From: Candidatus Latescibacterota bacterium
GTDB taxonomy: Bacteria > Latescibacterota > UBA2968 > GCA-2709665
Reading direction: 5' to 3'
NCBI GenBank assembly: GCA_965116875.1
Contig: OZ220733.1
Location: forward strand, 3,808,001 to 3,872,000
Length of the DNA: 64,000 bases
Both the position numbers and the translations under genes were made by a program. Under the pieces are notes generated by a model. The model was not told where the DNA came from, ran no database searches, and saw nothing but the letters and a program-made list of their open reading frames with translations. How positions within the stretch are numbered: the stretch's first letter is position 1; each line of letters begins with the position of its first letter. Positions 16,151 through 20,257 of the stretch are shown here, in pieces.

Positions 16151-16179
16151 TTGACATGAATCGTGCAACATCCTACATT
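16151..16179 (+). promoter_or_regulatory. Sigma70 promoter of the pheS leader
   Basis: TTGACA-17 bp-TACATT. Confidence 0.8.
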
Positions 16180-16186
16180 CTCACCC

Positions 16187-16490
16187 AAAGCGATGACGGA
16201 GGAAAGTAGGCCGTCCCCAACCGGAAAGGGAGGGGGCGCCCCGGACTGAAAGCGCCCTCGCGGCATGAACGGCCGAAGTTCCCTCTCGAGCTGCAACGCT
16301 GAATGCGATTCCTGGCCTGATGGACGTTCAGGGCAATTGCTACTAGGCGAAGCCGGTGACTCCCGCCGACAATGGAGAGGGGCGGTTCTTGCCGCCTGAA
16401 GAGCGGCGCCTGCACGGCGCAAATAGGGTGGTACCGCGGAAGACGTCACGTCCTTTCGTCCCTATGGGGATGAAAGGTTTTTCTTTTTTG
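16187..16490 (+). promoter_or_regulatory. T-box riboswitch, Phe specifier
   Basis: GCGATGA, AGTA, GGACTGAAA stem I motifs; GAAG-TTC specifier at 16279-16281; T-box AATAGGGTGGTACCGCG at 16422-16438; terminator CCTTTCGTCCC...GGGATGAAAGG plus U tract. Confidence 0.9.
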
Positions 16491-16562
16491 TCCATTGCGG
16501 ACCGAACACGTCGCCATAGGGTGTCTCGACAATCCCAGGTTCCGAATCCGGGGAGCATTGCC

Positions 16563-18149
16563 GTGAATCAGCCGATCGACCTGTCTTCCCTTCACGCGCT
16601 CGAAATCAGGACGCTGCGTGCCTTCGAGCCGCGTGAGGACCACGAAATCACCGACGCCGGCCTCCCTCGGGCCGCGGGCATCGGACCCGGCCAGGTCCGG
16701 CGCGCGCTGGAGTGGCTGCGTTCCAAGGGTCTTATCGAAGTCGTTTCGGAAGCGACGGTCACCACCGTCAGCCTCACCGAGCCGGGGGCCGTTCAGGCCC
16801 GCATCGGCGCGACGCCCGAAGTCGCGCTGCTGGTTCGTGCCGGCGAGGAGCCCGCGCCGACGCTCAGGCAATTGCAGGAAGACACCCGTTTTGACAGGGG
16901 CGAATGGGGCAGCGCCTTCGGCGGGCTGAAGGCGGAGGGTACAATCCGTCAGGAAGGCGCGGTCATCCGCATCGCCAATCCCGAAAGGGCCGCGTTCTTC
17001 GTGGAGAGGCTGATGCCCGGGCTCTTCGGACGCCTTCAGGAGGCTGGCGACGAGGCCGGGTTGAGTCTCGGCGACTTCACGGAAGAGATCCAGTCATATA
17101 TCCGGGAGCGAACGAGCAAACGCGGGAAGGGGCGGGCAGCCGTCCGCGTGGACGAACGCCTGGAGCGTGCGTACAGACTCACGTCGCCGGGCGTCCGGAC
17201 GCTGGCCGGCATTCTGGAGGCCAATCTGACGGGCGAAGAGGTCTCCCGCCTGACGCCGGAAATGATCCGGTCCGGAGGCTGGAAGAACGTGTCGTTCCGC
17301 CGGTACGACATCAGCATCAAGCCCCCGCGTATCCTCATCGGCCGTCTGCATCCCTACCGCACCTATCTGGACGGCGTGAGGCGCAAGCTGCTCTCGCTTG
17401 GATTCGAAGAAATGAAGGGGCCGCTGGTGGAAACCGAGTTCTGGAACATGGATGCCCTGTTCATGCCGCAGTTCCACGCGGCCCGTAATATCCATGACGC
17501 CTACTACGTAAAGGACCCCGTCCGTTCCAAAGCGGCTGAAGAACCCTTCTTCTCAAAAGTGGCCGAAGCCCACGCCAACGGCGGCGACACGGGTTCCCGC
17601 GGCTGGCGGTACGAATTCAGCCCCGCGCGCGCGCGCCGTCTCATCCTGCGCAGCCAGGGTACCGCGCTGTCAGCCCGCACGCTTGCATCGGGCCCGGACA
17701 TCCCCGGGAAATACTTCGCCGTTGCGCGCTGTTTCCGGTACGACGACGTCGACGCCACACACGCGGCGGATTTTTTCCAGGTGGAGGGCATCGTACTGGG
17801 CGAGCGCATCAATTTCCGGAGTCTGCTCGGCCTGCTCAAGCTCTTCGCGCTGGAAATCGCACAGGCGCAGGAGTGCCGTTTTGTGCCGGACTATTTCCCG
17901 TTTACGGAGCCGTCGGTCGAACTTCAGGCCAGGCACCCCTCGCTGGGCTGGATCGAATTCGGCGGCGCCGGCCTCTTCCGGCCCGAACTCACGCGTCCCC
18001 TGGGCGTCGATGTTCCCGTCATCGCGTGGGGTCTGGGCATCGACCGCATGGCAATGGTGGCCCTGGGAATCGACGACATCCGCGACCTTTTCAGCACCGA
18101 CCTGGCCCGGATACGGAACGAGAGAGAGAACAGACCGACGGTCAAATGA
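16563..18149 (+). CDS. pheS: Phenylalanyl-tRNA synthetase alpha subunit, archaeal/eukaryotic long type
   Basis: 528 aa with long N-terminus; GRLHP; FWNMDALFMPQFHAAR; CFRYDDVDATH; YFPFTEPS; AWGLGIDR. Confidence 0.93.
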   Translation: MNQPIDLSSLHALEIRTLRAFEPREDHEITDAGLPRAAGIGPGQVRRALEWLRSKGLIEVVSEATVTTVSLTEPGAVQARIGATPEVALLVRAGEEPAPTLRQLQEDTRFDRGEWGSAFGGLKAEGTIRQEGAVIRIANPERAAFFVERLMPGLFGRLQEAGDEAGLSLGDFTEEIQSYIRERTSKRGKGRAAVRVDERLERAYRLTSPGVRTLAGILEANLTGEEVSRLTPEMIRSGGWKNVSFRRYDISIKPPRILIGRLHPYRTYLDGVRRKLLSLGFEEMKGPLVETEFWNMDALFMPQFHAARNIHDAYYVKDPVRSKAAEEPFFSKVAEAHANGGDTGSRGWRYEFSPARARRLILRSQGTALSARTLASGPDIPGKYFAVARCFRYDDVDATHAADFFQVEGIVLGERINFRSLLGLLKLFALEIAQAQECRFVPDYFPFTEPSVELQARHPSLGWIEFGGAGLFRPELTRPLGVDVPVIAWGLGIDRMAMVALGIDDIRDLFSTDLARIRNERENRPTVK

Positions 18150-18189
18150 CCGCTCAGCCGACCCGACACCAGCGCGGTATGATGAACGA

Positions 18190-18390
18190 TTAACCTCAAT
18201 CCGAAAAAGACAACAGTTTAATTGGCTACAAAGAGCCTGAATGCGGGTAGAGGGTAGAGGGAAGACGGTAGAAGAAGCCCTCGCCCGATAATCTATACCT
18301 TCTTGCCTTCGGCAGGAGAAGAAACTCCACAGGGCGGGAAATCTCTCCCGTCTCCCGTCTCCCCCAGAGCGGGGTGGATTGGCGGGGTGA
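18190..18390. mobile_element. MITE-like repeat family C, copy 5 (inverted), between pheS and pheT
   Basis: TTAACCTCAATCCGAAA...TTGGCTACAAAGAGCCTGAATGCGGG is the reverse complement of the copy 1 tail. Confidence 0.78.
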
Positions 18391-18407
18391 TGGATGAAGG
18401 AGCATGC

Positions 18408-20093
18408 ATGCCCACCATTACCGTCATCAGACAGGATCTCGAACGACTCGCGGGCAGGAAGTACGATCTGCCCGAACTCGAACGCGCCCTGGAGGCCGTC
18501 AAGGCCGAAGTCAAAGTCGAGGATGACACCCGGCTGAGGATTCAGCTGAAGGATACCAACCGACCGGACCTGTGGTCGTCCGAGGGGGTTGCCAGGCTGC
18601 TCAGGGGGCATCGGAACGGCAGGCACGAATCCTATCCCTTTTTCGGGGAATCCGCGACGGATCTGGAACTGCGCGTCGATCCCTACCTGAAGGGCATCCG
18701 GCCCTGGATCGCCGCCTTCGCATGCAAAGGGATACCGGTGGACGGTGCGGCCCTCGAGCAACTCATCGAGGCCCAGGAAAAACTGGCGGAAGGATACGGG
18801 CGCGGGCGAAGCGCCGTGGCAATCGGCATCTACGACGCTTCCAACATCGTGTTTCCCGTCAACTTCGCCGCCGCGGACCCGGATGCCGCCCGCTTTGTCC
18901 CGCTGGGCATGGAAGAGGAGATGACGCTTCGGGATATCCTGAGTGAACACCCGACGGGCCGGACGTACGCGCATCTGCTCGAAGGCTTCAACCGGTTTCC
19001 CCTCATCACCGACAGCAGGGGCGACGTCCTCTCCATGCCTCCCGTGATCAACAGCCGAAACCCGGGCGCCGTGGAGGCCGGCGACACGTTTCTCTTCTGC
19101 GAGGCCACCGGCACCGAGCTCGACGCCGTACTCCTTTCCGTATCCATTATGGCCGCCAACATGGCGGACCGCGGCGGGCGCATCCTGCCCGTCAACGTAG
19201 TCTATCCATACGACACGCCGCGAGGGCGGGAGATCCGGTGTCCTGTGGATATGACGGAACCGGTGGAAGTCGATTTGGACGACCTGCGGCGCGTCATCGG
19301 CGGCGGAATCGACAACGAAGAAATCGAAGCCGCCCTGGCCGCCATGGGGTACCGTGACGTCGCGCTGGACCCAACCTGCGTCCGGGCGAGGCCGGCGCCG
19401 TACCGGGACGATATCCTGCATCCCGTGGACCTCATCGAGGACGTGATCGTGGCCGTGGGCTTCGACAGCTTCGAACCCGAGTTGCCGCGCGATTTCACCG
19501 TGGGCAAGTCCGCGCCCGAGGAAGACCTCGCGGACCGCATCCGCGGCCTGATGGTCGGCTGCGGGTTCCAGGAGCTCTTCCTGCCCATTCTTTCGTCGCG
19601 CGTTGACCTGACGGAACGAATGCGCGACACGGAAGCCGAGATCGTCGAGATTTCCAACCCCATGTCGGAGAACTACAGCGCGGTCCGGAACGCCCTGATG
19701 CCCGGGCTGCTCCGCGTGGAAGGGGCGAGCCGAAAAGCCCTGTATCCCCATCACGTCTTCGAGGTGGGCGAGGTCTCCGTCGTCGCACAGGACGACCTGT
19801 ACGGCACTCGCACCGAAATCCGACTCGCCGCGCTGGAGGCGCACGCCGAGGCCAATCTCTCGGGGATTCAGAGCCACCTCGAAGCCATCGCCTACTACCT
19901 CGGCTTCGACTACCGCCTCACGCCGTCGGCGCATCCCGCCTTCCTCCCGGGGCGGGCAGGGGAGATCCACGTGGACGGAGAAAGCTACGGCATCATCGGC
20001 GAGATCCATCCCGAAGTTCTGGAGAACTGGAGCGTCTCGGTGCCCGTGAGCGCGTTCGAAATCAACATCGATATCGCCCGCGTTCAACCGTGA
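18408..20093 (+). CDS. pheT: Phenylalanyl-tRNA synthetase beta subunit, archaeal short type
   Basis: 561 aa; MPTITV; NRPDLWSSEGVAR; LSMPPVINS; YRDDILHPVDLIEDV; no B2 OB-fold and no C-terminal FDX-ACB domain. Confidence 0.93.
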   Translation: MPTITVIRQDLERLAGRKYDLPELERALEAVKAEVKVEDDTRLRIQLKDTNRPDLWSSEGVARLLRGHRNGRHESYPFFGESATDLELRVDPYLKGIRPWIAAFACKGIPVDGAALEQLIEAQEKLAEGYGRGRSAVAIGIYDASNIVFPVNFAAADPDAARFVPLGMEEEMTLRDILSEHPTGRTYAHLLEGFNRFPLITDSRGDVLSMPPVINSRNPGAVEAGDTFLFCEATGTELDAVLLSVSIMAANMADRGGRILPVNVVYPYDTPRGREIRCPVDMTEPVEVDLDDLRRVIGGGIDNEEIEAALAAMGYRDVALDPTCVRARPAPYRDDILHPVDLIEDVIVAVGFDSFEPELPRDFTVGKSAPEEDLADRIRGLMVGCGFQELFLPILSSRVDLTERMRDTEAEIVEISNPMSENYSAVRNALMPGLLRVEGASRKALYPHHVFEVGEVSVVAQDDLYGTRTEIRLAALEAHAEANLSGIQSHLEAIAYYLGFDYRLTPSAHPAFLPGRAGEIHVDGESYGIIGEIHPEVLENWSVSVPVSAFEINIDIARVQP

Positions 20094-20131
20094 ACGCCGA
20101 AAAAGCCGTCGGGCCATGGTCAAAACACAGA

Positions 20132-20168
20132 AACGGGTTACGCCAGATTGGCGTAACCCGTTGTTTTT
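20132..20168. terminator. Bidirectional terminator between pheT and tRNA-Leu
   Basis: AACGGGTTACGCCA-GAT-TGGCGTAACCCGTT. Confidence 0.8.
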
Positions 20169-20169
20169 C

Positions 20170-20257
20170 TGGTGCCGAAGGGGGGATTCGAACCCCCACG
20201 AGCACAAGGCTCACTGCGCCCTGAACGCAGCGCGTCTACCAGTTCCACCACTTCGGC
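20170..20257 (-). tRNA. tRNA-Leu(CAG)
   Basis: GCCGAAG acceptor stem; anticodon arm CTGCG-TTCAGGG-CGCAG; long variable arm; GGTTCGAATCC; encoded CCA. Confidence 0.96.

Follow-up and report, generated by a model that had tools for sequence, protein, structure and literature searches.

How does a phenylalanyl-tRNA synthetase (PheRS) of archaeal descent come to stand behind a bacterial RNA switch? The question is raised by a pheS-pheT gene pair with a T-box leader in a Candidatus Latescibacterota bacterium (assembly GCA_965116875.1, contig OZ220733.1). We analysed a window of 64,000 nucleotides of this contig (positions 3,808,001 to 3,872,000), and all coordinates are positions in that window on the forward strand. 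A first-pass annotation of the window had described the pair as a horizontally acquired synthetase now under bacterial tRNA-sensing control. Since a T-box reads the tRNA of its host, it can regulate any enzyme charging that tRNA, whatever the ancestry of the enzyme. The locus would be a natural example of this, with a bacterial RNA switch over an enzyme of archaeal descent in genomes that have no other T-box. Both PheRS subunits encoded here are of the archaeal/eukaryotic type. We consider it highly probable that pheS and pheT form a two-gene operon behind a class I T-box leader that acts by transcription attenuation, with the following parts:

16151-16179, plus strand: sigma-70-like promoter, TTGACA (16151-16156), 17 nt, TACATT (16174-16179), 10 of 12 matches
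16184-16466, plus strand: T-box leader, class I transcriptional (RF00230), with Stem I, Stem II region, Stem III and antiterminator
16279-16281, plus strand: specifier UUC (Phe) in the Stem I specifier loop, inside GAAGUUCC (16275-16282), from the Rfam alignment
16422-16438, plus strand: T-box sequence AAUAGGGUGGUACCGCG, bulge UGGU at 16429-16432
16452-16489, plus strand: intrinsic terminator, 11-bp stem 16452-16462/16467-16477, loop 16463-16466, then UUUUUCUUUUUU (16478-16489)
16563-18149, plus strand: pheS, archaeal/eukaryotic-type PheRS alpha subunit, 528 aa, GTG start (NF003210, TIGR00468, PF01409)
18408-20093, plus strand: pheT, archaeal-type PheRS beta subunit, 561 aa, ATG start (TIGR00471)

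The synthetase and its leader

The open reading frame of pheS spans 16356-18149. Translation from the GTG at 16563 yields the 528 aa given above; GGGGAG lies 8 nt upstream of this codon, which lines up with the ATG or GTG start of the closest relatives L005 and L006 (92% PheS identity). The long N-terminus and the FWNMDALFMPQFHAARN motif described in the first-pass annotation are both present in the translation, which matches NF003210 with 525.3 bits (cut-off 350) over residues 9-521 and is also matched by TIGR00468 and PF01409. Its size fits an archaeal/eukaryotic-type alpha subunit of about 500 aa, with a long N-terminal extension and a class II core, and its best matches in the PDB are eukaryotic-type alpha chains, e.g. 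3l4g_A.

PheT likewise has the size of an archaeal-type beta subunit (about 550-600 aa). It reaches 482.4 bits against TIGR00471 (pheT_arch, cut-off 282.65) over residues 1-555, and 106.1 bits against TIGR00472 (pheT_bact, cut-off 402.65), there with its C-terminal half only. At E <= 0.01 its Pfam content consists of B5 and tRNA_synthFbeta only; neither tRNA_bind (B2) nor FDX-ACB (B8) gave a match at this threshold, in agreement with what had been read from the sequence before. Rescanning residues 1-331 at E <= 5 added just a weak hint of PhetRS_B1. Pfam B3_4 was not detected, yet residues 1-352 match the N-terminal fragment 2cxi_A (E 1.9e-67). The human beta chain 3l4g_B matches residues 50-554, and bacterial PheRS beta chains in the PDB match residues 283-555 only.

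The pair is the only PheRS of the cell, because the host genome, one contig of 5.45 Mb and 97.7% complete, holds a single PF01409 locus, pheS itself, and because the sole other pheT_bact match is the C-terminal tRNA-binding domain of MetRS. A second, bacterial-type pheST was not found in this whole-genome search. Assembled contigs of a metatranscriptome run (X1) contain short pheS and pheT pieces at 97-99% likeness, while none covers the T-box leader; DNA may be present in this material and it does not show transcript ends or levels, and no inference was drawn from either observation.

The leader (283 nt) aligns to RF00230 with 78.9 bits (E 3.6e-17) over model positions 1-219 of 219, and the T-box is thus complete, as had been proposed. 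A whole-genome search with the same model found no other T-box. UUC sits where the Rfam model aligns the specifier, and the gene downstream encodes PheRS. According to the TBDB report (PMC7778990), UUC is the specifier in 99% of Phe T-boxes. Among the 49 tRNA genes of the genome there is a single tRNA-Phe (C1:3889429-3889504), whose anticodon is GAA and whose gene specifies both A73 as discriminator and the CCA end. The specifier pairs with this anticodon, and the UGGU bulge is complementary to the ACCA end of the same tRNA, with U opposite A73. At the 3' end of the leader, 16452-16462 is both the 3' arm of the antiterminator and the 5' arm of the terminator, which makes the two helices mutually exclusive. 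The antiterminator alone folds at -16.9 kcal/mol. The terminator consists of a GC-rich hairpin of 11 bp with a U-rich run of 12 nt behind it; its folding energy of -17.5 kcal/mol (z -5.3) was reached by none of 200 shuffles. The sigma70 promoter claimed for the pair was recovered as a promoter-like site with the 10 matches listed above, and TTGAC (-35) and TAnnnT (-10) are equally placed before the leader in the seven relatives inspected (L005, L007, L008, L010, L011, L015, L016). Two promoter-like sites occur in 4.5 kb, as compared to 0.5 expected from shuffles.

Conservation of these parts was followed in 31 distinct leaders from relatives, which were delimited by the boundaries of the Rfam match and aligned. 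The UUC specifier columns are invariant (31/31), and UGGUACC is present in 30 leaders, L101 having UGGUAAC. RNAalifold predicted 63 pairs; compensatory changes occur at 27 of these, distributed over Stem I (including columns 35/100, 37/98 and 47/89), the Stem II region, Stem III and the terminator. The terminator pairs are kept in all 31 leaders, three of them changed on both sides. Leader length ranges from 302 to 394 nt, owing to variable inserts in the Stem II region. Judged by this pattern, the leader is under selection as an RNA. A reading of the L008 specifier as UUU was dropped; the alignment puts the change in the base preceding UUC.

In the mechanism that these parts suggest, RNA polymerase would start at the promoter, and tRNA-Phe(GAA) would dock on Stem I through the UUC specifier. 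The free ACCA end of an uncharged tRNA would pair with the UGGU bulge and stabilise the antiterminator, allowing read-through into pheST. With charged tRNA-Phe the terminator would form and transcription would stop. The Bacillus subtilis pheS leader is the classic class I case, and the leader studied here shares with such T-boxes a Stem I with GA/K-turn motif, the UUC specifier loop, a 14-nt T-box sequence with UGGN bulge, competing antiterminator and terminator, the U-run and an aminoacyl-tRNA synthetase as cargo. It differs in that its host phylum has one T-box per genome and no others, in that the cargo is an archaeal-type and not a bacterial PheRS, and in the variable inserts and low model scores of part of the leaders. 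The switch might instead act on translation, as do the class II T-boxes reported from Actinobacteria (PMC7778990). Nothing specific favours this here; a full Stem I is present, a strong hairpin precedes the U-rich run, and the Shine-Dalgarno sequence lies about 70 nt past the hairpin and is not sequestered by it. We regard a translational switch as extremely improbable. Attenuation of transcription would make the mechanism the ordinary one of Firmicute-type T-boxes, and nothing is changed in the accepted view of how T-boxes or PheRS work. The parts being known, the interest of the locus is a modest one, in their combination and in the origin of the leader. A literature search retrieved no report of a T-box paired with an archaeal-type PheRS; the TBDB tables and supplements, which lay outside this search, may hold such leaders.

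Distribution in the phylum and the contrary evidence

The phylum was sampled with 151 genomes, namely the host (G000), 18 genomes of family f1, 30 of f2, 64 of f3 and 38 of f4-f14. Archaeal-type pheT exceeds the cut-off in 45 of them: the host, all 18 of f1 and 26 of the 30 of f2. The four other f2 genomes are fragmented, two having gene fragments and two nothing. Bacterial pheT exceeds its cut-off in 99 genomes, all from f3-f14 (99/102) and none from f1 or f2. T-boxes were found in 41 genomes (G000, f1 18/18, f2 21/30, f3 1/64, f4-f14 0/38), with exactly one T-box in 40 of the 41. The type in front of pheS accounts for 40 genomes and is confined to f1 and f2, two sister families of one order, whereas the RF00230 search found no T-box on pheS in the families with bacterial pheST (f3-f14). 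At the level of loci, 28 of 30 T-boxes stand directly before an archaeal-type pheS, one is truncated by a contig end and one, from f3, stands before leuS. Three of the five closed chromosomes of named Latescibacterota carry a single pheS T-box and two carry none. The locus can thereby serve to mark one order of the phylum cleanly as a clade.

The sole T-box outside f1 and f2 in this sample (L085, locus positions 1501-1744) belongs to G060, an f3 genome with bacterial pheT. It has the best Rfam score of the phylum sample, 124.5 bits, shows the specifier context GAACUCGCC and precedes an open reading frame like that of leucyl-tRNA synthetase, named from its HIGH-region sequence.

Several observations weigh against a switch that works as described. 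The score of the leader falls under the RF00230 gathering score of 93, for which reason a default Rfam scan of the window showed no T-box and an E-value-based scan was needed to recover it, and 24 of the 41 phylum genomes with a T-box match score below this threshold as well. In Stem I, AG-bulge-like AAAGGGAG (16225-16232) and the loop GGACUGAAAGC (16243-16253) align to the distal platform of the model, the element that in T-boxes stacks on the tRNA elbow, but the distal loop is off the Rfam consensus and aligns poorly. The base following a T-box specifier is usually a purine; here it is C in 29 of the 31 leaders. The folds of Stem I and of the antiterminator alone do not surpass those of shuffles (z +0.25 and -0.36), and support for these elements therefore comes from covariation and not from energy. 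Nine of the 30 f2 genomes have no T-box; five of these leaderless genomes, in 1-2 contigs and 97-99% complete, do have archaeal-type pheT, so the switch is dispensable. Finally, the 258-nt spacer between pheS and pheT, which contains a hairpin-forming repeat, could disturb the co-expression of the two genes.

As to the scores, the 17 genomes that exceed 93 bits comprise 16 homologous f2 pheS leaders and the leuS leader of G060. The below-threshold scores in family f1 reflect divergence and inserts, with all parts present. Annotation pipelines that run Rfam probably label the f2 leaders above the threshold already.

Low score and repeated absence would also fit a leader that is a decaying relic with constitutive pheST expression, or one that responds to a tRNA other than tRNA-Phe, the more so as the alternative triplets AGU, GUU and UCC can be read in the specifier loop. 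A relic would hardly be expected to retain promoter, specifier, T-box sequence and terminator intact, nor to be conserved with compensatory changes over two families. For a different tRNA, UUC at the specifier position of the model stands in the way, as it agrees both with the enzyme downstream and with the sole tRNA-Phe including its discriminator base. We hold both versions to be very unlikely and retain a functional class I leader read by tRNA-Phe.

Descent of the genes and source of the switch

The history of the genes was studied with a PheS tree of 63 rows (IQ-TREE quick, LG+C20, SH-aLRT), in which the sequence of the window stood with 11 loci of the Latescibacterota type, 11 further loci and 40 stored proteins (P ids). 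The tree is one of PheS only, not PheT, and is built without bacterial-type or known spirochaete sequences; a first PheS tree left out rows below 440 aa or above 560 aa. The 12 Latescibacterota-type rows form one clade (SH-aLRT 100). Within a clade of 34 rows (97) it is accompanied by a 20-row clade (97) to which all 12 named Nitrospirota rows belong, among them Leptospirillum. The 34-row clade in turn joins a clade of Woesearchaeota and Nanoarchaeota (96). PheT gives the same ranking by identity. Its gene comes after pheS, on the strand of pheS, in each of the 80 loci, and the protein is 57-92% identical to that of the window in the Latescibacterota-type loci (13 full-length matches among 14) and 41-47% in the other 66 (60 full-length matches).

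L005 and L006 are titled 'Gemmatimonadota bacterium', where the other members of the clade bear the title Candidatus Latescibacterota. This label is probably a misassignment, because the PheS tree places both within the Latescibacterota clade.

The Nitrospirota enzymes, for example those of Nitrospira moscoviensis (L040) and Leptospirillum ferrooxidans (P0275), share the pheS-pheT order and occupy neighbouring PheS clades, and the proteins are 51-55% (PheS) and 41-47% (PheT) identical to those of the window. They differ in having no leader. In the four loci inspected (L018, L019, L022, L040), pheS begins at most about 30 nt after the preceding reading frame, which we take for ribulose-phosphate epimerase from its sequence. 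Of 61 Nitrospirota genomes sampled, 41 have archaeal-type pheT over the cut-off; the type is common there, though not universal. The view that the trait is known from few bacteria, such as some spirochaetes, does not hold in the face of this number.

For the Spirochaetaceae (Spirochaeta, Borrelia, Treponema), Andam and Gogarten (2011; PMC3191353) placed the archaeal-type PheRS genes near Thermococcales. Both cases have in common that the two subunits are archaeal in type and size, that they took the place of the bacterial enzyme in a single clade while the rest of the phylum retained the bacterial form, and that the trait marks this clade. In the present case Nitrospirota are the closest relatives with a name, and among named archaea Woesearchaeota and Nanoarchaeota stand nearest, in a tree with no known spirochaetal sequence. 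The locus thus adds a further whole-enzyme PheRS replacement in bacteria to the published spirochaete case.

Replacement of the bacterial PheRS by transfer is supported, because pheT is of the bacterial type in sister families within the phylum. To this extent the horizontal acquisition claimed at the outset stands, together with the Phe T-box upstream; a direct archaeal donor is not demonstrated, because the nearest PheS relatives are bacterial. The replacement is an old and order-wide one. A single displacement of the bacterial genes by archaeal-type pheST would have taken place in the common ancestor of the two families, and the T-box leader, homologous along its entire length between f1 and f2, would date to the same branch, with some members losing it later. 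The named Latescibacterota loci L009, L013 and L014 have archaeal-type pheS without a T-box and are nested among leader-bearing members in the PheS tree, and at least two losses are therefore needed. The gene upstream of pheS in L013 shares a repeat-rich C-terminus with that of the leader-bearing L011 and L012; from this arrangement, L013 looks like a clean leader deletion.

The T-box switch itself is probably an import too, because it is the only one of its genome and because none stands on pheS in the families with bacterial pheST. The order and the source of the two acquisitions we infer from the distribution of leaders and genes. The two may have arrived as one ready-made unit, leader and archaeal-type pheST together, from a bacterial donor with the same combination. 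Leader and genes indeed map to the same branch and are found in f1 and f2 alone among the 151 genomes, the leaders of both families are homologous throughout, and these genomes have no other T-box from which a leader could be copied. However, no donor-like lineage was seen. Among the 66 non-Latescibacterota pheS loci that the survey covered, which did not extend to the context of the basal proteins P0124, P0131, P0133, P0134 and P0147, none has a T-box motif upstream of pheS (0/66), and degenerate matches lie inside or far from coding sequence. The genome of L073 has no T-box. The same picture emerges from 101 sampled Nitrospirota genomes, 30 of which carry exactly one T-box each (loci L120-L149): 28 of these 30 stand before leuA and none before pheS. 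Arrival as a unit is therefore possible, but we give it less than an even chance.

Alternatively, leader and genes would have arrived separately: archaeal-type pheST was obtained from a Nitrospirota-like bacterium, and joined to it was a Phe T-box that either stemmed from a phylum rich in T-boxes or remained from a transient copy of bacterial pheST. This is consistent with nearest PheS relatives that have no leader. It is consistent also with the isolated T-boxes that stand before other genes in genomes with no further T-box (before leuS in G060, before leuA in Nitrospirota), which suggest that leaders move alone or with single genes. Against separate arrival speaks that no intermediate was found, i.e. 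no leaderless archaeal-type pheST at the base of the clade, the three leaderless tree members being nested in a way that fits later loss. Nor was a Phe T-box found on bacterial pheST in the phylum sample. The leader profile, moreover, matches the leuA and leuS T-boxes weakly, at 13-31 bits. Kinship with those T-boxes was considered and set aside, as the matches are mainly in the conserved 3' core and are uninformative on origin. Separate arrival comes near to an even chance, and of the two accounts we lean slightly towards it.

The lone leuA T-boxes of Nitrospirota resemble the leader of the window in being single in their genomes within an otherwise T-box-poor phylum. They differ in their leuA cargo, and only their conserved core resembles the window leader. 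In Nitrospira moscoviensis (L120, T-box at locus positions 1501-1736) the specifier context is again GAACUCGCC, with CUC (Leu) as specifier. Similar leuA T-boxes reportedly occur in Deltaproteobacteria.

On separate arrival, the operon would be a chimera of two imports on one branch, its synthetase genes, of archaeal descent, taken from a Nitrospirota-like bacterium and its Phe T-box from a lineage rich in T-boxes. We put this fuller picture forward tentatively, as somewhat less likely than separate arrival as such. If it is true, the chimera and the lone leuA and leuS T-boxes would show that T-box leaders cross phyla as self-sufficient cassettes. Such travelling leaders would need only the tRNA and the RNA polymerase of the new host, and could fit onto a foreign enzyme. 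The locus is a tractable case for the question of how regulatory leaders spread between phyla.

Surroundings of the operon

Three further features lie within and behind the pair:

18189-18365, no strand assigned: one copy of a hairpin-forming repeat dispersed in the genome, within the pheS-pheT spacer of 258 nt (18150-18407), from genome-wide similarity and folding
20132-20162, no strand assigned: 14-bp hairpin between pheT and tRNA-Leu with T-runs on both strands, detected on both strands
20170-20257, minus strand: tRNA-Leu(CAG), convergent with pheT (ARAGORN; Rfam tRNA 49.1 bits)

The core of the spacer repeat (about 18189-18365) recurs at 40 further places of the genome with 76-93% identity (169 candidates at first, 40 scored). 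The dispersed repeat is about 125-175 nt long and folds as a long imperfect hairpin (-69.1 kcal/mol, z -2.7); exact inverted-repeat arms were not found in the pheS-pheT spacer. It has the look of a small, mobile, non-coding repeat. Of 12 genomes of the same genus with both on one contig, 11 have 1696-1805 nt between the end of the T-box and the start of pheT, as compared to 1942 nt in the host genome and 1968 nt in G129, and the pheS-pheT spacers of the close relatives L005 and L006 measure about 20-30 nt. Because of these shorter distances, the insertion is judged to be recent. A second copy lies in the window at about 1686-1860 on the minus strand.

The hairpin at 20132-20162 is likely a two-way terminator closing the pheST operon. 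The first-pass annotation had the pair end at the 3' side of a tRNA gene, and this gene is the convergent tRNA-Leu(CAG), a neighbour outside the operon. On the minus strand, TTGACA-17-TATATT (20331-20303, 11/12 matches) is found 46 nt upstream of tRNA-Leu(CAG) and probably drives this gene. Elsewhere in the host genome, outside the window, a tRNA-SeC(TCA) gene is present (C1:184343-184440), from which it would seem that the organism probably uses selenocysteine.

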